From an uncultured Spirochaetales bacterium (GTDB lineage: Bacteria; Myxococcota_A; UBA9160; PR03), in the NCBI GenBank assembly GCA_964353555.1, contig CAYGWM010000001.1:3659-67658 (forward strand): a stretch of DNA of 64,000 bases. Reading direction: 5' to 3'. Positions within the stretch are counted from its first letter, which is position 1, and the number at the start of each line of letters is the position of its first letter. Below are positions 10,693 through 46,899 of this stretch, piece after piece. Under the pieces are notes generated by a model. That model worked only from the letters and a program-made list of their open reading frames with translations, was not told where the DNA came from and ran no database searches. The position numbers and the translations under genes were made by a program.

Positions 10693-10750
10693 ACGCGCGC
10701 GATGTCTCGTCGCGGGCTGCGGCTACGTCGGAGCGGCGCTGGCTGCGCAG

Positions 10751-14022: not shown

Positions 14023-14040
14023 CAGAATGGAGGAGAAAGG

Positions 14041-14152
14041 GAGAAAGGGGACGGTCCTGGGCGAGGACGGGCTGAGGACTGGAGGGACACACCTCGGCAA
14101 GTGTGTCCCTCCAGTCCTCAGCCAGGTCACTTCGAGGACCGTCCCCTTTCTC
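14041..14152. terminator. nested perfect inverted repeats (about 112 nt) between convergent genes; putative bidirectional terminator
   Basis: The inner stem 14074-14092 'gaggactggagggacacac' pairs perfectly with 14101-14119 (19 bp, 8-nt loop). It is extended by ggct/agcc. The outer stem 14041-14058 'gagaaaggggacggtcct' pairs perfectly with 14135-14152 (18 bp). No clear U-tract. Confidence 0.55.
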
Positions 14153-17902: not shown

Positions 17903-17905
17903 TCG

Positions 17906-18865
<960 letters not shown>

Positions 18866-18949
18866 GCCGGCCAAGGATACATCCTCCGTTGCACGCGCCG
18901 ACCTACGGCCAAATTGCCCAGCGGTTGCTCGTCGCAATCAATGTCGCGG

Positions 18950-27004: not shown

Positions 27005-27178
27005 GTTGACTCGTGTTGACTCGGGGACGCGTTGACTCGGGGACGTTCGTTGCGCCGGTTGACTTGGGGACGTTGGTTGCGCGAGTTGCGTCCAGGAACG
27101 TCCCCAACGCAAACGGCGCAACCAACGTCCCCAACGCAACTCGAGCAACGAACGTCCCCGACGCAACGGCGCGTGCTA
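27005..27178. repeat. palindromic array of 27-nt repeats (about 3.5 forward units, then 3 inverted units)
   Basis: Forward units are 27031-27057 GTTGACTCGGGGACGTTCGTTGCGCCG and 27058-27084 GTTGACTTGGGGACGTTGGTTGCGCGA, with partial units at 27005 and 27015. Inverted units are 27098-27124, 27125-27151 and 27152-27178 (ACGTCCCC[A/G]ACGCAAC...). A 17-bp perfect stem pairs 27066-27082 with 27116-27132, and a 15-bp stem pairs 27039-27053 with 27145-27159. Confidence 0.8.
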
Positions 27179-27198
27179 GGTTCCGGGGGGCGCGCAGT

Positions 27199-28461: not shown

Positions 28462-29705
28462 GTCTCGAGAAACTCTACGGTGCCATCTCGAAGCCGATCG
28501 GCGACGTGCTCGATCGCGCGCTCGCCGGTCGCGAGCTGTCGGTCGCCGACGCGACATTGCTGCTCGGCGCGCAGGGCGCCGACCTGCTCGCGCTGATGCA
28601 GGCCGCCGACGTCGCGCGGCGCGAAGACAAGGGTGACCTCGTCACCTACGTCGTCTGCCGGAACATGAACTTCACCAACGTCTGTTACGTCGGCTGCTCC
28701 TACTGCGGCTTCTCGCGACACAAAGACGACGCCGACGCCTACGACCATCCGATGGAGGCGCTCGTCGCGAAGGGTCGCGACGCGGCCCTGCGCGGCGCCA
28801 CCGAGTTCTGCATCCAGGGCGGCATCCATCCCGAGAAGGATCACACCCACTACCGCGAGATCCTGACGTCGCTGAAGGCAGCCTTCCCGCAGATCCACAT
28901 CCATGCGTTCTCGCCCGAGGAGATCGATCACGGCCACAAGAAGAGTGGCATGGCGCTCGCCGATTATCTGACGTGGTTGAAAGACGCCGGCCTCGGGACC
29001 ATCCCCGGAACGGCTGCCGAAATCCTCGACGATGAGATCCGCCAGGTGATCGAGCCGCGCAAGCTCGGCAGCGCGCGCTGGATCGAGATCATCGAAGCCG
29101 CGCACCGCGTCGGCCTGCGCTCGACCGCGACCGTGATGTATGGACACATCGAGCAGGCGCGTCACGTCGCGGCGCATCTGGGCACGATCCGCGAGATCCA
29201 GAAGCGCACCGGCGGCTTCACCGAGTTCGTGCCGCTCGGTTTCATCCACGAGAAGAACCGGCTCTTCCAGCACCTGCACGCGCGGCCCGGTTCATCGGGA
29301 CCGGAAGACATGCGCGTCGTCGCCGTCGCGCGACTGTTCCTGCGGCCGTGGATCCCGAACATCCAGATGTCGTGGGTGAAGATGGGGACCAAGCTCGCGC
29401 AGTTCGCGCTGCTGTCGGGCGCGAACGATTTCGGCGGCACGCTGATGGAGGAGTCGATCTCGCGCGAGTCCGGCTCGCAGCACGGCGAGAACCTGCCGCC
29501 CGAGGAGTTCCGCCGGCTGATCCGCGAAATGGGTCGCACCCCCGCCGAGCGCAGCACCAAGTACGAGATCCTGCGCGTGTTCGCGGATCCCGCGGAGGAT
29601 CCGCCGAGCCTCGAACCGGAACGCAAGAAGGATCTCGCTGGGCCGGCGCGCTGGAAGAAACAGGGCGAGAAGAATCCGCTGCGCGTGGCGGGGACGGGCG
29701 CCTAG
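28458..29705 (+). CDS. cofH: FO synthase subunit 2
   Basis: 'NMNFTNVCYVGCSYCGF', 'EFCIQGGIHPE', 'IHIHAFSPEEI' and 'ANDFGGTLMEESISRESG'. The ATG overlaps the cofG stop (ATGA). Confidence 0.9.
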   Translation: MSLEKLYGAISKPIGDVLDRALAGRELSVADATLLLGAQGADLLALMQAADVARREDKGDLVTYVVCRNMNFTNVCYVGCSYCGFSRHKDDADAYDHPMEALVAKGRDAALRGATEFCIQGGIHPEKDHTHYREILTSLKAAFPQIHIHAFSPEEIDHGHKKSGMALADYLTWLKDAGLGTIPGTAAEILDDEIRQVIEPRKLGSARWIEIIEAAHRVGLRSTATVMYGHIEQARHVAAHLGTIREIQKRTGGFTEFVPLGFIHEKNRLFQHLHARPGSSGPEDMRVVAVARLFLRPWIPNIQMSWVKMGTKLAQFALLSGANDFGGTLMEESISRESGSQHGENLPPEEFRRLIREMGRTPAERSTKYEILRVFADPAEDPPSLEPERKKDLAGPARWKKQGEKNPLRVAGTGA

Positions 29706-30881: not shown

Positions 30882-33122
30882 GTGGTGCCGCGGAAGTGCG
30901 CGATGTCGCCGGTGAGTGACGACCCCTTCCGATCCCGATCTGCGCCGTCTCGGCGCACGGATTTGATCGTCCTGTCGGGCATCATCGCGTCGTCCGTGGC
31001 CGTGACCGCGCTCCCCATATTCTTGTCGGGGCATCTCCATCACGACACGCTCGGCGTCTTTCCATACTTCCTGGACAACTTCGTATCGCTGTACCGCTTC
31101 GGAGAACCAGCCTGGTGGTCTCCCAAGATCAGCTTCGGATTCCCGACGTACTTCTATGCCCTCGTCGGAATCGTCAACGCCGGCAAGCCGGCATTCATGT
31201 TCGTGGGGCTGCTGGTCTGGATGCTGGGACGGCTCGGCATCGACATTCCCGACATGGTTCCCGTGTACATCTTCTACTTCGCCGTGCTGCTTCCCGCGTT
31301 GTTCGTGGTCGGCGTGGGACTCGTCGCGCGACGACTGCTCCGTTCGCGGGTGGCGCTTCTCTATGTGATGATCGTCGCGGCGTTCTCGCCCGGTGTGATC
31401 CTGAATCTGACCGACCCGGGAATGCTCGAGTACATGGCCTATTGCCTGTTCTGCGTCGCGGCCTACTTCGACTTCGTCGCCAGACCGAGCGCGCGGTCGT
31501 TTGCGCTCTTGTGTCTCTGCGGTGGGCTGATCAGCCTCGCCTTCAGCCAGTACGCTCTGATGACTGCGATTCCGTGGCTTCCGCTCCTCGTGATCACTTC
31601 GGCGGCAGTCTCGAAGTCGGCGCGAGCGGCGCTTCGGAGTGTGCCCATCTGGCAATGGGCGGCGGCGGCGATGCTGATCGTCGTGACGGCTTTGCCGAGC
31701 CTGATCGCTTATGCGCAGCAGCGCGACGAGACGACCCAGTACTCGCTGGACGGTTTCGAGTATTCCTTCTCCCGCATCAAGCCGGGGAACCCGCTCGAGT
31801 TCCTGCTCGCTAGCGTGCCGGCGATCACGTTCGAATGGGACGACTACCATCAAGGTGAGGACGCGCCCATCTCGGAGTTCAGGGCGGACGGGCTCGAGCG
31901 AGGCCGGCCCGGCGGCTTCGACTATCTGGGTGTGCTCGCCATTCCACTCGCGGCGCTGGGATTGGTGTACGGCCGTCGCCGTCTGCGGGTTCCGCTGTTC
32001 ATCATGCTGGTAGCGGCGATGACCGTCCTCGCGCTGCCGGGCTTCAGCCCGCTGTTCTCGCTGCTCCTCGCCTTCCCCTCGCCCCTGCGGAGCATGAATC
32101 ACTACGGCGATCTGCTGTATCGCGGCGGTGGATTCCTGCTGCTGCTCTTTGCGGCAGGCATGGGTCTCGAAGCGGCGCTGCGGCGTCGCGCCGTTCTCGA
32201 GCGGCTCGCGCCGCTCCTTGCCGCCACCAGCGTCGTGTCGCTGGGTGTCTGGTTCCACTTCGGACGGCCGGCGCAGAGTCTAGTGGGATTCTGCATGGCG
32301 CTGACGGTCTGTTTCCTGGTGGTGTTGCTGTGGGCCGCTCGTCTGCCGCGAAGGAGCGGCTCTCGGCTGCTCGCTGCTGGCATCCTGGGGCTTACCGCGA
32401 TCGACGTCTCGACCGCCGCATTCTGGCACATCCGCCTCCTGGTCATCGGTGAGCGCCAGCACTACGGACTCGGAGCAGGGCAGGGTCGCGACGATCCCTA
32501 TCCCGAAACCCAGGTCGCGGTGCTGATGCGCGAGACCAAGAAGATGGGCGAACGCGGCCTGCCTCTGGAGCGGATTCCATCGGTGAGCGCGTTCTGCAGC
32601 GCGCACACCTACGAGGATCTGCCGTCCGCGAGCGATTTCGAGCGCGCTCTCGACGTACCCAAGGCGGAACGTTCCCTGCCGCTGCCTGCGACGCTGCGGG
32701 ACGACGAATCGCTGCGCGCCTTCTTCGACCGACCTCCGGGGCAACCCTGCAAGACCTGGCTCGAACACGGCGGAAGCTTCAACTCGAAGCACGTGGTCGT
32801 CACCGCGGACCAGCCGACTCTCGTGCTCTTCGGCGACGCCTACGCGAAAGAGTGGCGCGCTACCGTCGATGGGATCCCGACACCCGTTCATCGCGCATTC
32901 GGAGCCTTCAAGGCGGTGTCCGTGCCTGCCGGCAAGTCTGATCTGCGACTCCGCTTCGAGCCGCCGTTGGTCGGCAAGGCGCTCGGGGGCGCCTACCTGG
33001 TCATGGTGGTGCTGGGACTCGTCGTGCTGCGGATGCCGCCGGACCGCGGGCCCTCCGGAACATCGTTTGCATCCTCGTCGCGACGAGACCGCCGACCGGA
33101 AGAACACAGCCAGCTGCGATAG
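30882..33122 (+). CDS. YfhO-like polytopic membrane protein (second copy)
   Basis: 746 aa with many TM helices. The C-terminal domain 'WRATVDGIPTPVHRAFGAFKAVSVPAGKSDLRLRFEPP' plus a final TM parallels the 15668..17902 protein. An alternative ATG is at 30903. Confidence 0.7.
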   Translation: MVPRKCAMSPVSDDPFRSRSAPSRRTDLIVLSGIIASSVAVTALPIFLSGHLHHDTLGVFPYFLDNFVSLYRFGEPAWWSPKISFGFPTYFYALVGIVNAGKPAFMFVGLLVWMLGRLGIDIPDMVPVYIFYFAVLLPALFVVGVGLVARRLLRSRVALLYVMIVAAFSPGVILNLTDPGMLEYMAYCLFCVAAYFDFVARPSARSFALLCLCGGLISLAFSQYALMTAIPWLPLLVITSAAVSKSARAALRSVPIWQWAAAAMLIVVTALPSLIAYAQQRDETTQYSLDGFEYSFSRIKPGNPLEFLLASVPAITFEWDDYHQGEDAPISEFRADGLERGRPGGFDYLGVLAIPLAALGLVYGRRRLRVPLFIMLVAAMTVLALPGFSPLFSLLLAFPSPLRSMNHYGDLLYRGGGFLLLLFAAGMGLEAALRRRAVLERLAPLLAATSVVSLGVWFHFGRPAQSLVGFCMALTVCFLVVLLWAARLPRRSGSRLLAAGILGLTAIDVSTAAFWHIRLLVIGERQHYGLGAGQGRDDPYPETQVAVLMRETKKMGERGLPLERIPSVSAFCSAHTYEDLPSASDFERALDVPKAERSLPLPATLRDDESLRAFFDRPPGQPCKTWLEHGGSFNSKHVVVTADQPTLVLFGDAYAKEWRATVDGIPTPVHRAFGAFKAVSVPAGKSDLRLRFEPPLVGKALGGAYLVMVVLGLVVLRMPPDRGPSGTSFASSSRRDRRPEEHSQLR

Positions 33123-35622: not shown

Positions 35623-36555
35623 TTGCGGGTTCTCGTCACGGGCGGCGCGGGGTATCTCGGCTCGATTCTCTGCGAGCATCTGCTCGCCGCGGGGCACCGC
35701 GTGACCGCGCTCGACGCGCTCCATCACAGCGTGCCGTCGCTGCTGCACCTGTGCGAAAATGCGCGCTTCGAGTTCGTTCGCGGCGACGCGCGCGACGAAG
35801 CGCTGCTCGCTCGGCTGGTGGCAGACGCCGACGCGATCATCCCGCTCGCGGCAGTGGTCGGCGCGCCGGCCTGTGATCGCGATCCGTGGCTCGCGACGTC
35901 CACCAACCTCGACGCGATCCGCCTGCTGCTGCGGCTGCGCTCGCCCGAGCAGCTGATCGTGTATCCGACGACGAACAGCGGTTACGGCACGCAATCGGGC
36001 GATGTCCTCTGCACCGAGGAGACGCCGCTCGAGCCGATCTCCTTGTACGGCCGCACCAAGGTGCAGGCGGAAGCCGACGTGCTGGCCAGCCCGAACGCGA
36101 TCACGCTGCGACTCGCGACGGTGTTCGGAACGTCGCCGCGGATGCGACTCGATCTGCTCGTCAACCACTTCGTCTACGCGGCCGTCACCGATGGCTATCT
36201 GGTGCTGTTCGAGCAGGAGTTCAAGCGCAACTTCATCCACATCCGCGATGTCGCCGACTGCTTCGTGCACTGCCTTGCGAACCCGCAGCGGATGCTCGGT
36301 CGGGCGCACAATGCGGGACTCGACAGCGCGAACATCTCGAAGGGCGAACTCGCCGCCGCGGTGCAGAAGCAGGTGCCGAACTTCCACGTCGTCGTCTCGG
36401 CGATCGGCTCGGATCCCGACAAGCGCAACTACATCGTCTCCAACCAGCGACTTCGAGAAGCCGGCTTCGAGGCGCGTCGCTCGCTCGAGGACGGCATCCG
36501 CGAGCTGCTGCGCGCCTATCGGATGCTCCCGCTCGGCAACTTTCGGAACGCGTGA
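35623..36555 (+). CDS. NAD-dependent sugar epimerase/dehydratase (extended SDR)
   Basis: TTG start 5 nt after 'aggagg'. 'VLVTGGAGYLGS' and catalytic 'SLYGRTK' (YxxxK). Confidence 0.8.
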   Translation: MRVLVTGGAGYLGSILCEHLLAAGHRVTALDALHHSVPSLLHLCENARFEFVRGDARDEALLARLVADADAIIPLAAVVGAPACDRDPWLATSTNLDAIRLLLRLRSPEQLIVYPTTNSGYGTQSGDVLCTEETPLEPISLYGRTKVQAEADVLASPNAITLRLATVFGTSPRMRLDLLVNHFVYAAVTDGYLVLFEQEFKRNFIHIRDVADCFVHCLANPQRMLGRAHNAGLDSANISKGELAAAVQKQVPNFHVVVSAIGSDPDKRNYIVSNQRLREAGFEARRSLEDGIRELLRAYRMLPLGNFRNA

Positions 36556-37298
36556 CGAAGTCGAACGCACTCGCCGAAATCCCGGTCGCGATCCTGGCCG
36601 GCGGACTCGGTACACGGCTGCGCCCATCGATCGGCGAACGGCCGAAGGTGGTCGCGGAAGTGAACGGCCGCCCGTTCCTTGCGTATCTGCTCGATCAGGT
36701 CGCGCGCTTCGGCTTCCGCGACGTGGTGCTCTGCGTGGGCTGGCAGGCGGACGCCGTCGAGGCGGCGCTCGGCGCGCGCCACGGACCGCTGCGACTGCGC
36801 TACTCGCGCGAGCCCGCGCCGCTCGGTACCGGCGGCGCACTGCGCCTCGCGCTGCCGCTGCTCGAAGGTCCCGCCGCGATGGTGATGAACGGCGATTCGT
36901 ACTGCGACGCCGATCTCGCCGCGGCCTGGGCATGGCACCGCGAAAAGCGCTCATCGGCGACGCTGGTACTGGTCGAGATGGCCGATACGTCCCGCTACGG
37001 CCGTGTCGAGCTCGACGAAAGCGATTCCAGCGGCTCGATCTGCCGCTTCCTGGAAAAGCAGCAAGGCAGCACACCAGGTTGGATCAATGCGGGAATCTAC
37101 CTGCTGGACCGCTCTCGCATCGAGTCGATCGCGGCGGACCGCGCGCTGTCGTTCGAGCTCGACGTGCTGCCGGGCTGGGTGGGCGCGGGGCTGATGGGCC
37201 ATCGCGTGGAAGCTCGTTTCATTGATATAGGAACGCCTCAATCGTATTCTACTGCGTCCCGATTCTTCGAGGGGGAAGCCTGGAGGAAGACCGAGTGA
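36552..37298 (+). CDS. sugar-1-phosphate nucleotidyltransferase (HddC-like, D-glycero-D-manno-heptose-1-P guanylyltransferase family)
   Basis: 'VAILAGGLGTRLRP...PKVVAEVNGRPFL', 'EPAPLGTGGAL', 'MNGDSY' and 'SRYGRV...FLEK'. The GTG overlaps the upstream stop (GTGA). Confidence 0.8.
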   Translation: MTKSNALAEIPVAILAGGLGTRLRPSIGERPKVVAEVNGRPFLAYLLDQVARFGFRDVVLCVGWQADAVEAALGARHGPLRLRYSREPAPLGTGGALRLALPLLEGPAAMVMNGDSYCDADLAAAWAWHREKRSSATLVLVEMADTSRYGRVELDESDSSGSICRFLEKQQGSTPGWINAGIYLLDRSRIESIAADRALSFELDVLPGWVGAGLMGHRVEARFIDIGTPQSYSTASRFFEGEAWRKTE

Positions 37299-38353
37299 TC
37301 ATCAGCCGCACGCCCTACCGCATCTCCTTCTTCGGAGGCGGCACTGATTATCCGGACTGGTACCGCGAGCATGGCGGCGCGGTGCTCGCGACCTCGATCG
37401 ACAAGTACTGCTATCTCTCCGCACGCTTCCTGCCGCCGTTCTTCGAGCACAAGATCCGCGTCGTCTACTCGAAGATCGAGGATTGCCACGACATCGACGA
37501 GATCCAGCACCCGGCGGTCCGCGAGATCCTGCGCTTCCTGCGCTTCGAGCGCGGCGTCGAGATCCACCATGACGGCGACCTGCCGGCGCGCAGCGGGATC
37601 GGCTCCTCCTCGTCGTTCTGCGTCGGCCTGCTGCACGCACTCTACGCGCTCACCGGCAAGATGCCGAGCAAGCACCAGCTCGCGACCGAGGGCATCCACA
37701 TCGAGCAGGAAGTGCTGAACGAAACGGTCGGCTCGCAAGACCAGGTGACGGCGGCCCACGGCGGCTTCAACCACCTGATGTTCCAGCCGAGCGGCGAGAT
37801 CTCGGTGCGGCCGATCACGATCGGCCCACAGCGGATGCACGAACTCGAGTCGCATCTGCTGCTCTTCTTCACCGGCGTGAGGCGCACCTCTTCGGATGTG
37901 GCGCAGAGCTACGTCCACAATTTCGACGGCAACAAGCGTCACTTGCGGATCATGAAGGACCTCGTCGACGAAGCCCTGGCGGTGCTGTCGAGCGATCGCC
38001 CGCTGGAGAACTTCGGCACGCTGCTGCACGAATCGTGGCTCGCGAAGCGCAGTCTCTCGAAAGAGGTCTCGACCTCCGAGATCGACGAGATCTATCAGAG
38101 CGCGCTCGGCGCGGGCGCGCTCGGTGGGAAACTGCTCGGCGCTGGCGGTGGCGGGTTCCTGCTGCTCTTCGCCAGTCCGGATCGCCACGAGATCCTGAAG
38201 CAGAAACTCGACGGTCTGATCCACGTCCCGTTCCGCTTCGAGTCCGGCGGCTCGCAGATCATCTTCTACGACCCCGAGGCGGACTACACTGCCGAGGAGC
38301 GCGTACGTGCCAATGGTCCGCCCAAGGTGTTCCGCGAGCGCGGCGGCTGCTGA
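37295..38353 (+). CDS. GHMP-family sugar kinase (HddA-like)
   Basis: 'IISRTPYRISFFGGGTDYPDWY', the GHMP ATP motif 'DLPARSGIGSSSSF', 'GSQDQVTAAHGGFN' and 'GGKLLGAGGGGFLLLF'. GTGA overlap with the upstream gene. Confidence 0.85.
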   Translation: MIISRTPYRISFFGGGTDYPDWYREHGGAVLATSIDKYCYLSARFLPPFFEHKIRVVYSKIEDCHDIDEIQHPAVREILRFLRFERGVEIHHDGDLPARSGIGSSSSFCVGLLHALYALTGKMPSKHQLATEGIHIEQEVLNETVGSQDQVTAAHGGFNHLMFQPSGEISVRPITIGPQRMHELESHLLLFFTGVRRTSSDVAQSYVHNFDGNKRHLRIMKDLVDEALAVLSSDRPLENFGTLLHESWLAKRSLSKEVSTSEIDEIYQSALGAGALGGKLLGAGGGGFLLLFASPDRHEILKQKLDGLIHVPFRFESGGSQIIFYDPEADYTAEERVRANGPPKVFRERGGC

Positions 38354-38363
38354 GCGGTGCCAG

Positions 38364-39311
38364 TTGGACACCGAGGCGCGGATCTTCGTCGCGGGCGGCG
38401 GTGCGCTGGTCGGCGACGCGCTGCTGCGGCGCCTGCGCGACGCCGGCTTCGTGAATCTTCTTGGCGTTGGCGACACCGAACCGGATCTGCGCGACGCCGA
38501 AGCCGTCGATGAGTTCTTCGCGAGCGAACGCCCCGAGTACGTGTTCCTGCTCGGTGGGCGCTCCGGCGGCATCGCGCGCAACCTGCGCGAACCCGCCGAG
38601 TTGATGCTCGACAACCTGCGCATCGAGACCGCGCTGATCCCAGCCGCGCACCGCCATGGCGTCCGCAAACTGCTCTATCTCGCCGCCGCCTGCATCTACC
38701 CGCGCGACTGCGAGCAGCCGATGCGGCCCGCGCAGCTCGGCAGCGGTCCGGTCGAGCCCAGCAGCGAGGCGTACGCGATGGCAAAATGGGCGGGTCTCGT
38801 GTTGTGCCGCGCCTACGCACGGCAGTACGGCGCGCGCTTCATCACCGCGATTCCGGCGAACCCATTTGGGCCGGGCGACGACACGCGCTCCGAAGATGCC
38901 CATGTCGTCGGCGCTCTGATCCGGCGGATGCACGAGGCGAAGCAGCGAGGCGACGCGGAAGTGATCGTGTGGGGCACCGGTCGCGCGCGCCGCGATTTCC
39001 TGTTCGCGCCCGATCTCGCCGACGCGCTGGTCTTCCTGATGCAGCGCTACGACGGCGAGCAACCGATCAACGTGTCGGGCGCATCGGATGTCGCGATCGG
39101 CGAGCTGGCTGAGTGCATCCAGAAGGTGGTCGGCTTCAGCGGCCGGCTGCGCTTCGACGCGAGCCGTCCCGACGGCGCGCCGCGCAAAACGCTCGACGGC
39201 GAGGCGCTCCACGCACTCGGCTGGTCGCCGCGTCACGCGCTCGAGGAAGCGCTCACTGCTACGGTTCGCTGGTTCGTCGAGTCCGAGTCGGGAGCGGCGA
39301 CGCATGGCTGA
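38364..39311 (+). CDS. GDP-L-fucose synthase-like NDP-4-keto-sugar epimerase/reductase
   Basis: 'IFVAGGGALVG', 'ACIYP', 'YAMAKWAG' (YxxxK), 'VWGTGRARRDFLF' and 'DASRPDGAPRKTLD'. TTG at 38364 is the first in-frame start after the kinase stop. Confidence 0.8.
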   Translation: MDTEARIFVAGGGALVGDALLRRLRDAGFVNLLGVGDTEPDLRDAEAVDEFFASERPEYVFLLGGRSGGIARNLREPAELMLDNLRIETALIPAAHRHGVRKLLYLAAACIYPRDCEQPMRPAQLGSGPVEPSSEAYAMAKWAGLVLCRAYARQYGARFITAIPANPFGPGDDTRSEDAHVVGALIRRMHEAKQRGDAEVIVWGTGRARRDFLFAPDLADALVFLMQRYDGEQPINVSGASDVAIGELAECIQKVVGFSGRLRFDASRPDGAPRKTLDGEALHALGWSPRHALEEALTATVRWFVESESGAATHG

Positions 39312-40254
39312 TCTCGATCGCATCTACCGCTCGCTGTTCCGGATCCGCCGCGTCGAGGAGGAGATCGCGCGCGTCTATCCGACCGACGTGATCAAGAGCC
39401 CGGTGCACCTTTCGATCGGTCAGGAATCCGTCTCGGTCGGACTCTGCGAAGCATTGCGACCGGATGACGCCGCGTTCGGCACCTACCGCAGCCATGCGCT
39501 CTATCTCGCGAAGGGCGGCGACCTGCGCGCGATGATCGCGGAGCTGTACGGCAAGGCGACCGGCTGTGCGGGTGGCAAGGGCGGCTCGATGCACATGATC
39601 GACGTCGCGGCCGGCGTGTTCGGTTCTTCCGCAGTGGTGGGAACGACGATCCCGCACGCGGTCGGCTACGCGTACGCGGTGAAGCTGCGCCGCGAGTCGC
39701 GCGTGGTGGCGTGCGTCTTCGGCGACGGCGCGGTCGACGAGGGCGTCTTCTACGAGAGCCTGAACTTCGCCGCATTGAAGCGCCTCCCGGTGATCTTCGT
39801 GTGCGAGAACAACAGCTACGCGATCCATACCCACCAACGGCTGCGGCAGCGCGTGGCGGACGTCTGCGCGCGCGTGACCGCGCTCGGCATCCCCGCGGAG
39901 CGCATCGACGACGGTGACGTGCTGCGGATCGCCACGCGCGCGCGTGCGGCGAGCGATGCGCTGCGCGGCGGCGACGCCGGTCCCGTCTTCATCGAGTGCA
40001 TGACGTATCGATGGAAGGAACACGTCGGCCCGGGCGAGGACTGGAACCTCGGCTATCGCGGGCGCGCCGAAGCCGAGCCCTGGATCCGCGGGGACCAGGT
40101 CGCGCGGCTCGCGACGACGATCGACCAGGTCGCGCGCAAGCGAATCGAGAGCGAGGTGGAGGCTGAGATCGCCGACGCCTTCGCGTTTGCCGAGGGCTCG
40201 CCGTTCCCGGATCCGACCGCGCTGCACACCCAGGTGTTCCGGGAGTCGCCGTGA
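39304..40254 (+). CDS. ThDP-dependent 2-oxoacid dehydrogenase E1 component, alpha subunit-like
   Basis: 'IKSPVHLSIGQE', 'YRSHA', 'GKGGSMH' and the ThDP motif 'GDGAVDEGVFYESLNFAALKRLPVIFVCENNSYA'. The ATG overlaps the upstream gene by 8 nt. Confidence 0.85.
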   Translation: MADLDRIYRSLFRIRRVEEEIARVYPTDVIKSPVHLSIGQESVSVGLCEALRPDDAAFGTYRSHALYLAKGGDLRAMIAELYGKATGCAGGKGGSMHMIDVAAGVFGSSAVVGTTIPHAVGYAYAVKLRRESRVVACVFGDGAVDEGVFYESLNFAALKRLPVIFVCENNSYAIHTHQRLRQRVADVCARVTALGIPAERIDDGDVLRIATRARAASDALRGGDAGPVFIECMTYRWKEHVGPGEDWNLGYRGRAEAEPWIRGDQVARLATTIDQVARKRIESEVEAEIADAFAFAEGSPFPDPTALHTQVFRESP

Positions 40255-41300
40255 GCGAGCGCGAGCAGAGCTACGTCGACGCGCTGCGCGAGGCCGCGTT
40301 CCAGGAGATGGAGCGCGATCCGTCGGTCGTCTGCTTCGGCCTCGATGTGGACGATCCGAAGGCGATCCAGGGCACTACGCGCGGGCTCGTCGATAAATTC
40401 GGCCCGGAGCGCGTGTTCGGCACGCCGCTCGCCGAAGACGCGATGACCGGCGTTGCGATCGGCATGGCGCTCGCCGGCCTGCGCCCGATCCACGTGCACA
40501 TCCGGATGGATTTCTTGCTGCTGGCGATGAACCAGCTGATCAACATCGCGGCGAAGAGCCATTACATGTATGGCGGTCACGTCCACGTGCCGATCGTCGT
40601 GCGCTCGATGATCGGCAAGAGCTGGGGGCAAGGTGCCCAGCATTCGCAGGGACTCTATTCGTTCTTCATGCACGTGCCGGGCATCAAGGTGGCGGCGCCC
40701 ACCAATCCCCACGACGCGAAGGGCTGTCTCATTGCAGCGATTCGCGACGACAACCCGGTGATGCTCGTCGAACACCGGCTGCTGTATCCACACGAGGGGC
40801 CCGTGCCGCAGGCGCTCTACGAAGTGCGGCCCGGGCGCGCCCGCGTCGCAGCGCCGGGCAGCGACGTCACGTTGGTGGGCATCTCGCACATGTTGGTGGA
40901 GTGCCTGCAAGCGCGCACGTATCTCGCCGAGAAGGGCGTTTCAGCCGAGGTGATCGACCCGATCTGGCTGGCGCCGCTCGACATCGACACGATCGTGGCG
41001 TCGGTTGCGAAGACCGGCCGGCTGGTCGCGGTGGACAATGGCTGGACGACTTGCGGCGCCTCGGCGGAGATCGTTGCCCGCGTGGTCGAGCGTTTGCAGG
41101 GCACGCGCGACATTCGCGTGCACCGGATGGGCTTCGCGCCCACCACCTGCCCGCCGACGCCGGGCCTCGAGAAGCTCTTCTACGCCGATGCGCGCACGAT
41201 TGCGGCCGCTGCCAACGATCTGGTCGAAGGTCGCAGCACGGGTTGGCTTCCTGCCGAGCGTCCGAGCTCCGGTGAGATCACGTTCCGGGGACCGTTCTGA
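40251..41300 (+). CDS. E1 component beta subunit-like (transketolase pyrimidine-binding and C-terminal domains)
   Basis: 'RVFGTPLAEDAMTGVAIGMALAGLRP', 'QHSQ' and 'APTNPHDAKGCL'. GTGA overlap with the alpha subunit. Confidence 0.85.
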   Translation: MSEREQSYVDALREAAFQEMERDPSVVCFGLDVDDPKAIQGTTRGLVDKFGPERVFGTPLAEDAMTGVAIGMALAGLRPIHVHIRMDFLLLAMNQLINIAAKSHYMYGGHVHVPIVVRSMIGKSWGQGAQHSQGLYSFFMHVPGIKVAAPTNPHDAKGCLIAAIRDDNPVMLVEHRLLYPHEGPVPQALYEVRPGRARVAAPGSDVTLVGISHMLVECLQARTYLAEKGVSAEVIDPIWLAPLDIDTIVASVAKTGRLVAVDNGWTTCGASAEIVARVVERLQGTRDIRVHRMGFAPTTCPPTPGLEKLFYADARTIAAAANDLVEGRSTGWLPAERPSSGEITFRGPF

Positions 41301-42478
41301 TGTCCTGGCCGCTGATGCGCAACAACATCTCACGTGAAGATTTGCAGGCGGTGATCCGGTTCCTGTCGGCCGACGATCCGATCCTCACGCAGTCGAAACA
41401 GGTGGAACTCTTCGAGCAGGAATGGTCGGAGTGGCTGGGCGTACAGCACTCGGTATTTGTGAACTCGGGTTCGTCGGCGAATCTGATCACGATGGCGGCG
41501 CTGCGCCACCGCTACGGCCCGGGCGAGGTGATCGTACCGACGCTCACCTGGGTCTCCGACATCACCGCGGTGCTGCATGCGGGTCTGACGCCGGTGTTCG
41601 TCGACATCGATCCGCGCACGCTCGGGATGGACAACGACGCGGTGATCGAGAAGCTGTCGCCGCGCACGCGCGCGGTCTTCCTGACGCACATCCTCGGCTA
41701 CAACGCGCTCGGCGACCGGCTGCTCGATACGCTGCGCGAGCGCCGCATTCCGCTGATCGAGGACGTCTGCGAGTCGCACGGTGCGACCTTCGCGGGCCGC
41801 AAGCTCGGCACCTTCGGACTCGCGTCGAATTTCTCGTTCTATTACGCGCATCACATGAGCACGATCGAAGGCGGCATGGTTTCGACCGACGACGCCGAGC
41901 TGTTTGCCATGCTCCGCATGTTGCGCGCCCACGGACTCGTGCGCGAAGCCGGCGATGATGCGGTGAAGAGCCGCTACGCCGAGGCGCACCCGGATCTCAC
42001 GCCTGACTTCATTTTTGCGCTGCCCGGCTTCAACGTGCGCTCGACCGAGATCAACGCGGTAATGGGTCGCTCGCAGCTGCGCCGTCTCGACGCGAACAAC
42101 GAACGCCGTCGCGCGAACCTCGCGGTGTTCCTGCGCCATCTCGATCCGAACAAGTACTTCACCGACTTCGCCACCGAGGGAAGCTGCAACTACGCCTTCA
42201 CGCTGGTGCTGCGCGATCCGGACGACGCGCTTCGCGATCGCGTGATGACCGCGCTCCGCGAGCGCGGCATCGAGTTTCGGCGCGGCACCTCGGGCGGCGG
42301 CAATCAGCTCCGCCAGCCCTACCTCCGAGGGATCGTCGCTGCGGAAGATCTCGGCCGCTTTCCGCGCGTCGATCACGTCCATTTCTACGGCTTCTACATC
42401 GGCAACTACCCCGATCTCGAGCCCGAACGGATCGCCCGCCTCTGCGATATGTTGAACGCAATCGACAGTGGGAAGTAG
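41300..42478 (+). CDS. DegT/DnrJ/EryC1-fold PMP-dependent NDP-4-keto-6-deoxysugar 3-dehydratase (ColD / E1 DdhC type)
   Basis: DegT-family fold ('NSGSSANL', 'IEDVCESHGA'). At the Schiff-base position the sequence reads 'FSFYYAHHMSTIEGGM', with His instead of Lys. This is the signature of ColD and CDP-hexulose 3-dehydrase E1. Confidence 0.75.
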   Translation: MSWPLMRNNISREDLQAVIRFLSADDPILTQSKQVELFEQEWSEWLGVQHSVFVNSGSSANLITMAALRHRYGPGEVIVPTLTWVSDITAVLHAGLTPVFVDIDPRTLGMDNDAVIEKLSPRTRAVFLTHILGYNALGDRLLDTLRERRIPLIEDVCESHGATFAGRKLGTFGLASNFSFYYAHHMSTIEGGMVSTDDAELFAMLRMLRAHGLVREAGDDAVKSRYAEAHPDLTPDFIFALPGFNVRSTEINAVMGRSQLRRLDANNERRRANLAVFLRHLDPNKYFTDFATEGSCNYAFTLVLRDPDDALRDRVMTALRERGIEFRRGTSGGGNQLRQPYLRGIVAAEDLGRFPRVDHVHFYGFYIGNYPDLEPERIARLCDMLNAIDSGK

Positions 42479-42483
42479 GCATC

Positions 42484-43989
42484 ATGGCGACCGACATCGA
42501 TCTGGTCCTCGTGAACCCGGGCGGTCGCGCCCGCATCTATCAGTCGCTTGCGACGGAGGTCACCGCCGTCGAACCGCCCGTATGGGCGGGACTGATGGCC
42601 AGTTTCGTCCGCGGGCGTGGTCACTCGGTTGCGATCATCGACTCGAACGCCGAAGAGCTGGGACCGGAAGAAGCAGCCGCACGCGCGATCGAGATGCGGC
42701 CGCGGATGGTCGCGGTGCCCGTCTACGGTCACCAGCCGTCCGCCTCGACGCAGGTGATGCCGGGTGCGAGCGCGGTCGTGACCGCGCTGAAGGACCTCGC
42801 GCCCGAGCTGCCCGTATTGATGGTCGGCGGTCACGTCGCATCGCTGCCGCAGCGCACGCTCGCCGAGGAGCGCTGCGACTTCGTCGCCGACGGCGAGGGC
42901 CTGCACACGATGGTGGAGCTGCTCGAAGCGCTCGCCGCGAGCAGCACACCCGAATTCTCGCGCGTGCGCGGCCTCTGGACACGTGATGGCGACGGCGCGA
43001 AATGCACTGCGACCGCGCCGCTGGTGATGAACGTGGACGTCGAGATGCCGGGCGTCGCGTGGGACCTGCTGCCGATGCAGAAGTACCGCGCGCACAACTG
43101 GCACTGCTTCGGCGAAGCGAGCCGCGAGCCCTACGTCGCGCTCTACACCACGCTCGGGTGTCCGTACCACTGCTCGTTCTGTTGCATCCAGGCGCCGTTC
43201 AAGAGCGGCGAGTCGCTGGCCGGCTACAAGGACAGCGTCAACTCGTACCGCTTCTGGAGTCCCGCGCGCGTGCTCGAGGATCTGACGCTGCTGGTCGAAC
43301 GCTACGGCGTTCGCAACATCAAAGTTGCCGACGAGATGTTCGTGCTGAACGCGCGCCACGTGAACGCGATCTGCGACGGCATCGTCGCGCGCGGCCTGCC
43401 GCTGAACATCTGGGCGTATGCACGCGTCGACACCGTGAAGGATTCGATGGTCGACAAGCTGGCGCGCGCCGGCGTACGTTGGCTCGCCTTCGGCATCGAG
43501 GCCGCCAGCGAACGCGTGCGCGCCGACGTCGACAAGGGCTTCGACGACGAACTGGTCTACCGCACGCTCGAGAAGGTGCGCGGCGCCGGCATCCGCGTGA
43601 TCGGCAACTACATCTTCGGCCTGCCGGAAGACGATCACGACACGATGCAAGAGACGCTCGACCTCGCGATCGAGCTCAACTGTGAGTTCGCAAACTTCTA
43701 CTGCGCGATGGCGTACCCCGGATCGCCGCTCTACGACCGCGCGATCGCCGAGGGCTGGCCGCTGCCCGAGACCTGGGGCGGCTACTCGCAGCACAGTGTC
43801 GACTCGCTGCCGCTGCCCACGCGCCACCTCTCGGCCGGCGAGGTGCTGCGCTTCCGCGATGAAGCCTTCCAGGCCTACTTCAAGAGCCCGCGGTACCTGT
43901 CGATGGTCGAAGCGAGGTTCGGCGCTGCGACGCTGCGCGAGATCGCCGCGATGTCCGCGCACCGGCTCGAGCGGCGGTTCGCCGCGTGA
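42484..43989 (+). CDS. B12-binding-domain radical SAM enzyme (class B)
   Basis: N-terminal Rossmann-like cobalamin-binding domain ('DLVLVNPG...', 'VGGHVASLP'), then 'TTLGCPYHCSFCC' (CxxxCxxC). 501 aa. Confidence 0.85.
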   Translation: MATDIDLVLVNPGGRARIYQSLATEVTAVEPPVWAGLMASFVRGRGHSVAIIDSNAEELGPEEAAARAIEMRPRMVAVPVYGHQPSASTQVMPGASAVVTALKDLAPELPVLMVGGHVASLPQRTLAEERCDFVADGEGLHTMVELLEALAASSTPEFSRVRGLWTRDGDGAKCTATAPLVMNVDVEMPGVAWDLLPMQKYRAHNWHCFGEASREPYVALYTTLGCPYHCSFCCIQAPFKSGESLAGYKDSVNSYRFWSPARVLEDLTLLVERYGVRNIKVADEMFVLNARHVNAICDGIVARGLPLNIWAYARVDTVKDSMVDKLARAGVRWLAFGIEAASERVRADVDKGFDDELVYRTLEKVRGAGIRVIGNYIFGLPEDDHDTMQETLDLAIELNCEFANFYCAMAYPGSPLYDRAIAEGWPLPETWGGYSQHSVDSLPLPTRHLSAGEVLRFRDEAFQAYFKSPRYLSMVEARFGAATLREIAAMSAHRLERRFAA

Positions 43990-44936
43990 GCGCGCCGGTG
44001 CTTTCGGTCGTGCTGTCGTTCCGCAACGAGGCGGACGTGATCCCGGAGTTGATCTCCCGGCTCGCAAAGTCGCTCGAAGGCGCCGGCATCGACTACGAGC
44101 TGATCTTCGTGAACGACGCCTCTACGGATGGCTCGCTCGCGCTACTCGAAGCACTGCGCGCTCGCGATCCGCGCGTGAAGATCCTGAACATGTCGCGTCG
44201 CTTCGGTGTGGCTCCCTGCGTGATGGCGGGTATGCAATTCGCGCGGGGCGACGCCGTCGTCTACATGGACACGGACCTGCAGGATCCGCCCGAGCTGATC
44301 CCGACGCTGGTTGCGCGCTGGCGCGAAGGTGCCGACGTCGTCTACACGGTGCGCACTTCGCGACAGGGCGAGTCGGTATGGAAGATGCGCGTGACGCGCG
44401 CCGCGTACCGCGCGATCCAGCTCGCGTCGGACATCGAACTGCCGATCGAGGCAGGCGACTTCAAGTTGCTTTCGCGACGCGTCGTCGACCAACTGATCGC
44501 GCTCGGCGAGCAGGATCTCTACGTGCGCGGGCTCGTCACGTGGATGGGATTCCGGCAGGTGGCGGTGCCGTACGAACGCCAGCCGCGCGGCGCGGGTGAG
44601 GCGCACTTCCCGCTGTTGCGGAGCTGGGGGCCGATTTCTTCATTTGTTGCCGGCGTGACGTCGTTCTCGCATGCGCCATTGATTGCTTTTCTGCTGCTCG
44701 GCCTCGCCGGTGGCGCGCTCTCGATGCTCGCGCTCGCGCTGCTGCTGCTCGCTGGTGTCGTCGGCGCAGCGGCCTCGAGCATCGCGTGGCTCGTCGCATT
44801 CGGCGTGCTGCTGTGGAGTACGCTGGCGCTCGGGATCGGCGTCATCGGTCTCTATCTCGCACGCATCCATCGCGAGGTGCTCGGACGGCCGCGCTACATC
44901 GTGGAGAGCGCCATCGGCTTCGATGAGCCGAGCTGA
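43986..44936 (+). CDS. polyprenyl-phosphate glycosyltransferase (GT2, ArnC/GtrB-like; third copy)
   Basis: 'LSVVLSFRNE', 'IFVNDASTDGS', 'RRFGVAPC' and 'MDTDLQDPPE', then two C-terminal TM helices and 'GLYLARIHREVLGRPRYIV'. GTGA overlap with the rSAM gene. Confidence 0.85.
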   Translation: MSAPVLSVVLSFRNEADVIPELISRLAKSLEGAGIDYELIFVNDASTDGSLALLEALRARDPRVKILNMSRRFGVAPCVMAGMQFARGDAVVYMDTDLQDPPELIPTLVARWREGADVVYTVRTSRQGESVWKMRVTRAAYRAIQLASDIELPIEAGDFKLLSRRVVDQLIALGEQDLYVRGLVTWMGFRQVAVPYERQPRGAGEAHFPLLRSWGPISSFVAGVTSFSHAPLIAFLLLGLAGGALSMLALALLLLAGVVGAAASSIAWLVAFGVLLWSTLALGIGVIGLYLARIHREVLGRPRYIVESAIGFDEPS

Positions 44937-46899
44937 GCAGCTGTCGTCGTCCGCAGTGTCGCCCTTCAGCGCCGGCCGTCCGCTCGCCGGCGTAGTGGCG
45001 ATCAGCGCCGCGGCGGGGTTCGTGGTCGGTCTGCTGTTCCCTGCCTGGCACGTCGCGCTCGAACCCGCGCAGGTGATCGCTGGGATCGTCGAGTACCCGA
45101 GCGGCAATCCATTCGGACTCTACGAAACACGGCTATGGACCGGCTGGCACCAGGTCCTCGCGCCGCTGCTCGCGGCTGGTGTTCCGGAGCGCGTGCTGAC
45201 CTTCGTGCTCTCTGGTCTCGTCGCCGCGATTTCGTTCACAGCACTCACCGCATTTGCATACGGACTCGGCGCCGACGCCGAGCTTGCGATCGCGACACCG
45301 TTCGTGCTCGGCGTGCTGAACCCCACCTCGTGGCAGTTTTGGTACCCGATCATTTTGCTCGGCCATGGCCACACCTACGGCATGGCGGGACTTGCGTGGC
45401 TGGTGCTTGCCTGCGGTGTGCTCGCGACGGAACGCTGGGCGGTGGCAGCGTTTCTGATCGGCATCGCGCCCGCAGTACACGCGTCGCTCGGCGCGTGGCT
45501 CGGTCTGCTCGCGCTGGTTTGCGGACTCGCGCACTGGCGCGAGGTGCGCCCCCATGTCGCCGCGATCGTGCGCGGTGGCACGCTCGGCGCTTCGATCGCC
45601 GCGCTGAGTCTCGCGACACATCTGCTCCGCCAGCCCGCCGGGCTGGCGGTCGATCCCGCCGTCGCGAGCCGCTACCTCGATGGCTTCGTCCAGCTCTGGG
45701 ATGCGCACCGCATCCCCGGCAACGTGACGGGTTTCGGCGGGCTCGTGGTGTGCATCGGCCTGATCGTCGCCGTCGCAATGCTGCGATGTGCACGACGGCA
45801 GATCGGCGCCGCCACTGCACTGGTGCTGAACGTCTATGTCAGTTGCGGCGTGCTAGGCATCGCGCTGGCGCTCGTGCAGCGATTCGTGCCACCCGAGCAG
45901 ATCCCGAACACGCTGCTGATCGCGATGCCGGCGAGGCTGCTCAATCTGCCGGCGCTCGCGTTCGTGCCGCTGCTGATCGGCGTGCTCGGGCGCTACCGGA
46001 GCGATGTGGTGGCGCGCGCGCTGCTGGTCGTTTTGGTGACGGTCGCCGCGCTGCGTCCACTCTTCGCGGATCTCGCACTCTACGGCTTGCCGATCGTTGG
46101 TGTGGCGACGGCCCTTGTGATCGACCGCCACGCCGATCGTCCCGGCGCAATCCGGATCGCGGTGATCGGCATGCTGGCGTTTGCCGGGCTGCGCGCGACG
46201 CAGTCCACGGTTCCCCTCTCGTGGCGGGATGCGGCGTCGTTCGCTGCGATGCTGACCGCGGCGGCGCTGGGGGTCGGCGCTTCGCTGCAGCGAACGCGCG
46301 CGACCAACCGCGATGGATCGCTAGCGCGACTCGCGCGTCGCCTCGCCGAGCAGCCGTTGCCGCTGCAGCTTCCGCTGCGCATCGCACTCGTCGCGACGGT
46401 ACTGATCACGGTCAACGCGGCGATTCGCGGCTTCGAGTACCGCTTGTCACGGCTGCACGATCGCAGCAACGATCGAGCGCTGGCCGCCGCGTCGCGCGGC
46501 GACGGTCTGTTGCTGGTGGCGCCGCGCATTTCGACGCCGCAGCTGATCACGCGTCGCCCGGTGGTGCTCGATCCGGGCGCGCTCGACATGCTGCCCTACG
46601 CGCTCGCGGGTGGACCCGAGTTGGAGCGCATGCTGCGCATCGGCTACGGAGTCGAATTCTTCGCGCCGCCGCCGAAGGCGCTGCACACCGCGCTGTTGCC
46701 CAGCGAAGTCGTGCAGCCGATCTGGGAGAAGCGCAGCGGCGCGGAATGGCGCGAAGTTGCGACGAGTCTCGGCGTCACCGACGTGCTGGTTCCGGCGACG
46801 TGGAAGCTATCCGGCGTGCCGGAAGTCGAGCGCAGCAGCGCGTACGTGCTCTATCACCTCGCGACGCCCGCTGGCGCAGGTCCGGCCGGCACCCGATAG
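44923..46899 (+). CDS. polytopic membrane protein (658 aa), candidate GT-C-type transferase for the operon's sugar
   Basis: C-terminal 658 aa of ORF 44683..46899. About 12 or more TM helices, then a soluble C-terminal domain. The ATG at 44923 overlaps the GT2 by 14 nt. Family not recognised. Confidence 0.6.
   Translation: MSRAEQLSSSAVSPFSAGRPLAGVVAISAAAGFVVGLLFPAWHVALEPAQVIAGIVEYPSGNPFGLYETRLWTGWHQVLAPLLAAGVPERVLTFVLSGLVAAISFTALTAFAYGLGADAELAIATPFVLGVLNPTSWQFWYPIILLGHGHTYGMAGLAWLVLACGVLATERWAVAAFLIGIAPAVHASLGAWLGLLALVCGLAHWREVRPHVAAIVRGGTLGASIAALSLATHLLRQPAGLAVDPAVASRYLDGFVQLWDAHRIPGNVTGFGGLVVCIGLIVAVAMLRCARRQIGAATALVLNVYVSCGVLGIALALVQRFVPPEQIPNTLLIAMPARLLNLPALAFVPLLIGVLGRYRSDVVARALLVVLVTVAALRPLFADLALYGLPIVGVATALVIDRHADRPGAIRIAVIGMLAFAGLRATQSTVPLSWRDAASFAAMLTAAALGVGASLQRTRATNRDGSLARLARRLAEQPLPLQLPLRIALVATVLITVNAAIRGFEYRLSRLHDRSNDRALAAASRGDGLLLVAPRISTPQLITRRPVVLDPGALDMLPYALAGGPELERMLRIGYGVEFFAPPPKALHTALLPSEVVQPIWEKRSGAEWREVATSLGVTDVLVPATWKLSGVPEVERSSAYVLYHLATPAGAGPAGTR

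Follow-up and report, generated by a model that had tools for sequence, protein, structure and literature searches.

The 64-kb stretch of DNA analysed here (hereafter the window; contig CAYGWM010000001.1, GC content 68%) carries two adjacent genes for the alpha and beta subunits of a thiamine diphosphate (ThDP)-dependent E1 enzyme, placed in the middle of an operon of sugar genes. The locus raises the question of whether this pair serves a 2-oxoacid dehydrogenase complex, such as pyruvate dehydrogenase (PDH), or attaches a carbon branch to a sugar. Judged from its sequence relationships and gene context, the pair is probably a stand-alone sugar-branching carboligase of the alphaKADH2 type and not part of a 2-oxoacid dehydrogenase complex, a reading that we hold with reasonable, though by no means full, confidence.

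An intact E1 pair embedded in a sugar operon

Genes were called with a GC3-based procedure, domains were assigned by Pfam scans, and family calls were made against the NCBIfam equivalog cut-offs. The two subunits are encoded as follows.

39304..40254, + strand: E1 alpha subunit, ThDP-binding, E2-less (alphaKADH2) type; 316 aa; PF00676 E1_dh, E = 1e-58
40251..41300, + strand: E1 beta subunit; 349 aa; PF02779 Transket_pyr, 1.2e-34; PF02780 Transketolase_C, 1.1e-28; C-terminal extension of about 23 residues

The alpha chain (E1_dh) and the beta chain (Transket_pyr and Transketolase_C) are separate, and the ThDP motif and the catalytic residues are intact. The ThDP motif of the alpha subunit, GDGAVDEGVFYESLNFAALKRLPVIFVCENN, begins at residue 140; its spacer counts 26 residues (GDG-x26-NN) and not the 27 (GDG-x27-NN) given in a first-pass annotation of this DNA. 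In the beta subunit, the Glu of PLAEDAM aligned with human beta Glu59 and the His of GAQHSQ with human beta His128, and alpha His240 (in WKEHVG) aligned with human alpha His263. The domain matches, the motif and the aligned residues bear out the earlier description of two intact subunits, the beta having pyrimidine-binding and C-terminal domains. Human PDH E1 was the closest solved structure for both subunits. The best NCBIfam models were likewise those of PDH E1 alpha and PDH E1 beta, with scores below the respective equivalog cut-offs (282.6 bits versus 393.85 for alpha and 274.8 bits versus 321 for beta).

The operon consists of ten genes on the + strand (35623-46899), with junctions of +10 to -14 nt throughout. 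The stop of the upstream Fcl-like gene overlaps the alpha start by 8 nt, alpha and beta overlap by 4 nt, and beta overlaps the downstream gene by 1 nt. These overlapping start and stop codons support the translational coupling of the pair with sugar genes on both sides, as had been claimed. The downstream gene encodes a ColD-type 3-dehydratase (see below), an identity that sharpens the earlier idea and does not contradict it. Scans for promoters and terminators gave results no better than shuffled sequence.

Neither an E2 nor an E3 gene accompanies the pair in the window. A six-frame tblastn search of the 64 kb with two E2 seeds and one lipoyl-E3 seed, all taken from related loci, gave no match at 1e-4, and Pfam scans of the called genes revealed no lipoyl, 2-oxoacid_dh or Pyr_redox_dim domain. 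One Pyr_redox_2 protein (4-1155) also has a Reductase_C domain and is therefore of the ferredoxin-reductase type, not an E3. The absence of a lipoyl-E2 or E3, noted in the first-pass annotation, held in both searches, and the underlying observation of an intact, coupled E1 pair in a window without E2 and E3 was confirmed.

The pair belongs to a clade without adjacent E2

Eighty related loci were taken from reference genomes; their E1 genes were located, and E2 and E3 were looked for. An E2 gene stood beside the pair at 32 of the 80 loci, all with at most approximately 43% identity to the window alpha subunit. About 45 loci had no adjacent E2, and all the loci closer to the window were among them. 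In a neighbour-joining tree of the concatenated alpha and beta sequences, the E2-linked and E2-less groups were set apart. The bootstrap support for this split, which ignores four taxa of unknowable E2 status (most of which lie on a short contig or close to its end), was 300/300 for alpha plus beta and 299/300 for alpha alone, where TxnB3 was included and human PDHA1, added to the set, fell on the E2-linked side.

One of the E2-less loci (L048) comes from Streptomyces. A search with its alpha subunit retrieved TxnB3 of trioxacarcin biosynthesis (70% identity to L048), together with an S. rochei 'probable pyruvate dehydrogenase alpha-subunit' and a Kibdelosporangium E1 alpha, and all three fell in the E2-less half alongside the window; AviB1, Pau11 and the aldgamycin pair were left out of this tree. 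The window alpha subunit shares 45% identity with TxnB3 and 46% with the Kibdelosporangium protein. The GC content had at first suggested an actinomycete, an idea given up because the nearest homologues of the window proteins are labelled as a Pseudomonadota metagenome-assembled genome (MAG). When set against canonical E1s, the window pair thus lay outside the E2-linked clade with both data sets, in the company of named sugar-branching alpha subunits.

The two groups also differed in residue signatures. The E2-less alpha subunits, TxnB3 and the window protein included, have P33, S37, Y67, C88, E146 and R181, whereas the E2-linked proteins and human PDHA1 have G32-F33, W159 and GH(S/F)xxDP instead. 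The loop after the catalytic alpha His reads EHVGPGxD in the E2-less proteins (EHVGPGED in the window). In the beta subunit, the segment beside the ThDP-stacking Phe is V-H-I-R in the E2-less group (His in 93%, Arg in 100%) versus E-(I/L)-M-x in the E2-linked group. The clade-specific residues of the window beta subunit are His83, Arg85 and Arg176, the last of which is invariant across the E2-less group.

A literature search found no published E2-docking residues of the E1 beta subunit, and the docking surface was assessed by a data-driven comparison of 30 E2-linked and 40 E2-less pairs. The beta tail past the last conserved block was 32 aa long in the window, which is also the E2-less median, versus 8-15 aa (median 9) in all 30 E2-linked subunits. 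One beta column, which we take to be the Glu285 of the Bacillus stearothermophilus beta subunit that contacts the peripheral subunit-binding domain, was acidic (D/E) in every E2-linked pair (30/30), whereas 24/40 E2-less pairs have K/R there. The window protein retains Asp287 at this column, within a locally divergent segment. On the loss of E2-binding residues on beta, raised in the first-pass annotation, the comparison informs only in part, and because Asp287 is kept, the loss of docking is not shown residue by residue for the window protein.

To evaluate the gene context of the E2-less clade, Pfam families were counted over 130 genes, each at most two positions away from one of 39 E2-less pairs. 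The most frequent were extended short-chain dehydrogenases/reductases (SDRs; 18), DegT (17), radical S-adenosylmethionine (SAM) enzymes (12) and family 2 glycosyltransferases (GT2; 6), with further contributions from SIS_2 (5), sugar transferases (4) and GHMP kinases (4). This dominance of nucleoside diphosphate (NDP)-sugar enzymes supports the sugar-branching reading. The architecture of the window pair, the absence of E2, the sugar context and the phylogeny with named members support, as far as sequence can, its placement among the alphaKADH2 enzymes. In context and phylogeny, the pair departs from the E1s of dehydrogenase complexes.

Putative GDP-heptose chemistry in the operon

Four genes of the operon precede the pair, and the two that follow it directly encode further candidate sugar enzymes, the first of them dependent on pyridoxamine 5'-phosphate (PMP).

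35623..36555, + strand: extended SDR, homologue of PDB 6vo6; PF01370, 1.7e-30; PDB 6vo6/6vo8, E = 1.9e-101 over residues 1-308
36552..37298, + strand: nucleotidyltransferase, HddC-like; PF00483, 1.5e-26; PDB 6jq8/5xhw, 9e-33
37295..38353, + strand: GHMP sugar kinase, HddA-like; GHMP_kinases_N and GHMP_kinases_C; NCBIfam HddA, 4.7e-39, under the cut-off
38364..39311, + strand: GDP-L-fucose synthase (GFS)-like SDR of the epimerase/reductase type; NCBIfam GDPFucSynFcl, 5.7e-104; PDB GFS 7ll6, 2.7e-84; E. coli GFS, 1e-78
41300..42478, + strand: PMP-dependent sugar 3-dehydratase, ColD-like (DegT family); PF01041, 4e-69; PDB ColD/WbdK 2gms, 3gr9 and 3b8x, 2.6e-49
42484..43989, + strand: B12-binding radical SAM enzyme; PF02310 and PF04055; best NCBIfam model HpnJ, 152 bits versus a cut-off of 577

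The matches of these genes in the PDB probably point to GDP-heptose chemistry. The first SDR, whose TTG start at 35623 is preceded by AGGAGG, matches entries entitled 'putative sugar-nucleotide epimerase/dehydratase' and is a probable GDP-heptose C4-dehydrogenase yielding a 4-keto sugar. The nucleotidyltransferase is a probable heptose-1-phosphate guanylyltransferase: its best entries bear the title '6-deoxy-D-mannoheptose pathway protein', and the next-best are mannose-1-phosphate guanylyltransferases. The GHMP kinase matched the heptose kinases 3k85, 4usk and 4n3o (1e-35 to 1e-32). The operon contains no SIS or HAD gene that could encode GmhA or GmhB; elsewhere in the window, no search aimed at either was made.

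The DegT-family gene downstream of the pair has ColD/WbdK (GDP-4-keto-6-deoxymannose 3-dehydratase) ranked above perosamine synthase and ArnB. Its motif FYYAHHMSTIEGG aligns to FYSHHIATMEGG of ColD and has a His at the position of the Schiff-base Lys; the ColD mutant entry 3b8x has an Asn at the first His of the motif. The same His is present in the orthologues of loci L001-L003, L005, L008, L009, L013, L023 and L034. A His in place of the Schiff-base Lys is a known hallmark of ColD and of the E1 dehydrase. The best match to ColD, combined with the Lys-to-His replacement, identifies the gene product as a 3-dehydratase and not an aminotransferase.

The GFS-like SDR, the start of which is uncertain (38307, 38313 or 38364), is a candidate C5-epimerase and/or ketoreductase. 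It keeps Cys109, Tyr136, Lys140 and His179, and Ser107 is replaced by Ala. We considered and rejected the idea that Ser107Ala makes it an epimerase-only variant that spares the 4-ketone for the E1 pair. Ala at this position of the E. coli GFS catalytic triad (motif AAC(I/V)YP) was found in the window and its 74-86% identical relatives (L081-L083), and Ser107 is kept in the distant module members L001, L002, L004, L013 and L034. Being confined to the close relatives of the window, the replacement is not a feature of the module.

The radical SAM enzyme may be a C-methyltransferase or may carry out other radical chemistry on the sugar. It weakly matched the NCBIfam model of the AprD4 diol-dehydratase (7e-17), and it co-occurs with the module in L002, L013, L034 and L081-L083. 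Loci L002 (13942-16041 and 18564-20072) and L034 (11705-13180 and 13207-14658) each have two B12-binding radical SAM genes; a SAM methyltransferase gene in L034 and a NUDIX gene in L002 suggest more heavily modified sugars there. Two known sugars were considered as products and set aside. Bradyrhizose had been prompted by the HpnJ-like radical SAM enzyme, and the literature reached gives no matching gene content. A route to erwiniose through a heptose and radical SAM methylation was dropped, as erwiniose is explained by ErwE acting with 4-hydroxy-2-oxopentanoate on a CDP-hexose (PMC9306805).

Predicted delivery to the cell envelope

The operon ends with two genes that would deliver the product.

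43986..44936, + strand: GT2 polyprenyl-phosphate glycosyltransferase of the GtrB/ArnC/PgfS type; PF00535, 2.6e-31; NCBIfam PgfS, 4.1e-62, and ArnC, 1.1e-38, both under the cut-offs
44923..46899, + strand: polytopic membrane protein of 658 aa with about 12 transmembrane segments; no Pfam or NCBIfam match

The GT2 has two C-terminal hydrophobic helices (approximately residues 225-295). Homologues of the membrane protein are rare, with only 50 found among 5.8 billion clustered proteins and none of them annotated, and several of their contigs have the same length as contigs with E1 alpha homologues; an invariant Glu47 follows the first transmembrane segment. Its AlphaFold2 model, built from 40 sequences, reached a pLDDT of 88.9 and a pTM of 0.90. 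The top 12 Foldseek matches of this model in the PDB were all of the GT-C fold, among them EmbC/A/B, AglB, STT3, ALG9, DPY19 and PglB, and all were weak (E 0.018-0.13, TM approximately 0.3, probability 0.77-0.99). The modelled fold makes the protein a candidate GT-C-fold transferase using a polyprenyl-phosphate-linked sugar, and a periplasmic glycosylation step of the GtrB/GtrC or ArnC/ArnT kind is plausible but not established. The predicted hand-over of the product, first to a polyprenyl-phosphate GT2 and then to a GT-C-like protein, speaks for an envelope glycan and not for a secondary metabolite.

Further polyprenyl-phosphate glycosyltransferase/GT-C-like pairs may lie elsewhere in the window: at 15668-18937 (- strand), a second GT2 (AglJ/PpgS-like) adjoins a 744-aa protein without a Pfam match, and at 30882-33122 (+ strand) lies a separate protein of 746 aa that weakly matches YfhO.

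Proposed pathway and alternative explanations

Several precedents bear on a C4-branching route. The Raushel laboratory reported that Cj1427 oxidises C4 of GDP-heptose and that a ColD-like C3-dehydratase then forms GDP-D-glycero-3-deoxy-4-keto-heptose in vitro (PMC10680097). YerE adds the C2 unit of pyruvate to a CDP-3,6-dideoxy-4-keto-hexose, after which the acetyl branch is reduced by YerF (PMC9306805). The alphaKADH2 pairs, as in the aldgamycin, paulomycin, avilamycin, trioxacarcin and kibdelomycin pathways, use pyruvate to build a C2 branch onto a deoxysugar ketone at C3 or C4, and for E1s of this class the established model is the one drawn from AviB1/B2 (PMC12247030, PMC4753412, PMC4802897). 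In vitro, KbDH-alpha/beta used only pyruvate as the donor and accepted ketones (PMC12247030). On these precedents we propose that the window pair would add an acetyl unit to C4 of GDP-3-deoxy-4-keto-heptose.

In the proposed pathway, GmhA and GmhB would be supplied from elsewhere in the genome; in relatives, their counterparts lie inside the module. The 6vo6-like SDR would oxidise C4, and the ColD-like PMP enzyme would take off the 3-hydroxyl to give GDP-3-deoxy-4-keto-heptose. The E1 pair would decarboxylate pyruvate and add the resulting hydroxyethylidene-ThDP to the C4 ketone, giving a 4-C-acetyl tertiary alcohol. The GFS-like SDR may then epimerise the sugar and/or reduce the branch ketone, and the B12-radical SAM enzyme may modify the sugar further. 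Finally, the GT2 would load the product on polyprenyl phosphate, and the GT-C-like membrane protein would pass it to an envelope acceptor. We infer the donor, the acceptor and its C4 position, the sequence in which the enzymes act, what the GFS-like and radical SAM enzymes do, and the acceptor at the end of the route. The AviB1/B2-like carboligation suggested in the first-pass annotation is supported by the phylogeny, the gene context and the predicted supply of a keto-sugar by the operon itself. The fuller picture, in which the product is an undescribed 3-deoxy-heptose with an acetyl or 1-hydroxyethyl branch at C4, modified by the radical SAM enzyme and delivered on polyprenyl phosphate by a new GT-C-like family, and in which the E2-less pairs form a cross-phylum family of sugar C-branching enzymes, is put forward tentatively, as a serious possibility that falls somewhat short of being probable.

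Several points weigh against the sugar-branching reading. Its support comes from phylogeny and gene context. The trees were built by neighbour joining from loci retrieved with query-derived patterns, which biases the sampling, and the part of the genome seen amounts to 64 kb. The 6vo6 structure is only presumed to be that of the GDP-heptose C4-dehydrogenase Cj1427 of Campylobacter jejuni. The retained Asp287 of the beta subunit belongs here, as does the complete epimerase/reductase residue set of the GFS-like enzyme in most relatives. Together with the 3-dehydratase, the GFS-like SDR could complete a colitose-like 3-deoxy-heptose without branching, leaving the E1 pair without an obvious ketone.

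The last point leads to an alternative in which the pair remains a ThDP carboligase and works on another acceptor, such as a side-chain aldehyde or ketone of the heptose produced by the radical SAM enzyme (chain extension), or with another donor, such as hydroxypyruvate or 2-oxobutyrate. Like ColC and ColD, the GFS-like and ColD-like enzymes could use up the C4 ketone on their own, and the radical SAM enzyme, with its weak resemblance to AprD4, accompanies the module, in two copies in L002 and L034. Since a finished colitose-like sugar would force the E1 pair onto another carbonyl, we give this alternative some weight; we nevertheless regard it as unlikely, as the operon leads directly to a 3-deoxy-4-keto sugar, the type of acceptor used by YerE, and the known alphaKADH2 enzymes attack C3 or C4 ring ketones and appear restricted to pyruvate (PMC12247030).

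The pair might also act as a decarboxylase or lyase, converting a 2-oxo acid to an aldehyde or cleaving an acyloin, with no C-C bond formed on the sugar. The decarboxylation half-reaction is common to all E1 enzymes and the catalytic residues are generic; however, the operon has no gene for the formation or use of an acid or aldehyde of this kind, and the co-inheritance with keto-sugar-forming enzymes across phyla points to a keto-sugar partner, making this option quite improbable. An ordinary PDH or acetoin dehydrogenase E1, with its E2 and E3 encoded elsewhere and its place among sugar genes accidental, seems more improbable still. The best family names and the best solved match (human PDH E1) would fit it, as would Asp287 at a column acidic in all E2-linked pairs. 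Against it stand the NCBIfam scores below the equivalog cut-offs, the position outside the E2-linked clade (299-300/300), the overlapping codons that bind the pair to sugar genes on both sides, the retention of the sugar-gene linkage in several phyla and gene orders, the remodelled loop after alpha His240 and the 32-aa beta tail. A sugar-branching carboligase is the explanation that we retain for the pair.

Distribution of the module and other genes of the window

The module comprises the first SDR, the GHMP kinase, the Fcl-like SDR, E1 alpha, E1 beta and the 3-dehydratase, with or without the B12-radical SAM enzyme, and its gene order varies. Its hosts include Gammaproteobacteria, Dehalococcoidia, Lentisphaerales, Binatia, Myxococcales, Rhodospirillales and Chloroflexota, among others. 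The module is fully syntenic in relatives of 79-89% identity, and the flanking genes differ there. A SIS_2 (GmhA-like) gene lies inside the module in L001, L002 and L034, and L001 and L002 also have a HAD (GmhB-like) gene.

In other sub-clades of the E2-less group, the DegT partners are of the Lys type (aminotransferases). One example is L070, a Candidatus Pelagibacter (SAR11) MAG in which an E2-less E1 pair lies between an SDR and two Lys-type DegT aminotransferases (9980-14663); this looks like a module for sugar branching, here in the streamlined genome of a marine bacterium. In L081, the E1 alpha of which is 89% identical to that of the window, the ColD-like gene was called in two fragments of 206 and 90 aa (12325-13178), and downstream of 15636 the GT2 is not followed by the membrane protein; module decay or an assembly error is possible.

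Outside the operon, the window encodes CofG and CofH, the two halves of the synthase of the F420 precursor FO (27013-28461 and 28260-29705, + strand), both above the NCBIfam cut-offs and both in DNA whose nearest relatives bear the label of a Pseudomonadota MAG. A large protein encoded at 12055-14022 (+ strand) has DUF7657 (E = 1.3e-89) and DUF7654 (2.5e-27) domains.

Implications

The sugar-branching class of E1 is already known, assayed and reviewed for actinomycete antibiotics, and Krug et al. 2024 are said to have reported about 120 clusters for it. To our knowledge, E1-type branching has been discussed only for such antibiotics, and the C-branched sugars of Gram-negative envelopes have so far been explained by single-chain enzymes of the YerE type. 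No relevant report of E1 genes in O-antigen clusters turned up in a search of the literature. In the literature reached, the setting of GDP-heptose, ColD-type dehydratase, B12-radical SAM enzyme and polyprenyl-phosphate delivery appears to be undescribed, as do the Gram-negative and uncultured hosts and the breadth of the E2-less clade across phyla.

The locus and its relatives indicate that E1-type branching may also serve envelope glycans, acting on GDP-heptose in many uncultured lineages. If this is true, E2-less E1 pairs are not a speciality of actinomycete antibiotics but a family that spans Pelagibacter to Patescibacteria, and many branched sugars would await discovery in the envelopes of uncultured microbes. 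The proposal would provide a route in which four enzymes (C4-dehydrogenase, 3-dehydratase, E1 alpha/beta and SDR) convert GDP-heptose to a branched sugar. The residue signature would separate sugar-branching E1s from complex E1s, all of which are now annotated as 'pyruvate/acetoin dehydrogenase E1', and the family would offer new ketone-accepting ThDP carboligases for synthesising tertiary alcohols.

Comparison with known systems

The window pair shares its fold, domain set, GDG...NN motif, cofactor-activating beta Glu and the alpha and beta His residues with the canonical E1s of PDH, branched-chain 2-oxoacid dehydrogenase and acetoin dehydrogenase. The canonical enzymes belong to the E2-linked clade and have the GHSxxDP loop and E-(I/L)-M-x, whereas the window pair has EHVGPGED, VHIR and a C-terminal extension of the beta subunit.

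For delivery, the GtrB/GtrC, ArnC/ArnT and PgfS-type systems show the same arrangement, in which a large polytopic membrane protein comes after a GT2 that has two C-terminal transmembrane helices. The window membrane protein differs in belonging to no described family, and its likeness to GT-C is weak (E of at least 0.018). The ten-gene operon showed no gene for a GtrA-like flippase.

With respect to the GDP-heptose enzymes of C. jejuni (Cj1427, the HS:5 C3-dehydratase and the GFS-like C4-reductases), the window encodes a homologous kinase and guanylyltransferase, along with homologues of the C4-dehydrogenase-like SDR, PMP 3-dehydratase and GFS-like reductase. We know of no ThDP or B12-radical SAM step in the C. 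jejuni heptose pathways. The report on the C3-dehydratase contains no occurrence of thiamine and describes the 3-deoxy (6-hydroxy) heptoses as novel in vitro products (PMC10680097). The pairing of genes in the window suggests that 3-deoxy heptoses are natural intermediates.

YerE and YerF of yersiniose A biosynthesis, together with the related ErwE, act in Gram-negative O-antigens, the same cell-surface glycan context. Their logic is also the same, with a 4-keto sugar undergoing PMP-dependent 3-deoxygenation, ThDP-dependent branching at C4 and ketoreduction by an SDR (PMC9306805). YerE differs in being a single-chain flavoprotein of the decarboxylase superfamily (TPP_enzyme_N, M and C) that acts on a CDP-hexose, whereas the window has an E1 alpha/beta pair and probably a GDP-heptose. 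The pair lacks the YerE architecture, and the sole window protein with it is encoded at 5465-7111 (+ strand), 32 kb from the operon; its best matches were acetolactate synthase PRK05858 (518 bits, cut-off 587) and 2-hydroxyacyl-CoA lyase.

The last comparison is with the alphaKADH2 pairs, namely AviB1/AviB2 of avilamycin, Pau11/Pau12 (= Plm8/Plm9) of paulomycin, TxnB3 and its partner, the aldgamycin pair and KbDH-alpha/beta of kibdelomycin. Like the window pair, they are two-subunit E1 enzymes, without E2 and E3, among NDP-sugar genes, and the chemistry, which for the window pair is proposed only, would be the same formation of a pyruvate-derived acetyl branch on a keto-sugar. The known hosts are actinomycetes, whereas the nearest homologues of the window are labelled as a Pseudomonadota MAG. 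The known scaffolds are dTDP-deoxyhexoses, whereas that of the window is apparently GDP-heptose. The window pair also differs in its partners, a ColD-type 3-dehydratase and a B12-radical SAM enzyme, and in its predicted delivery by a polyprenyl-phosphate GT2 and a GT-C-like membrane protein.

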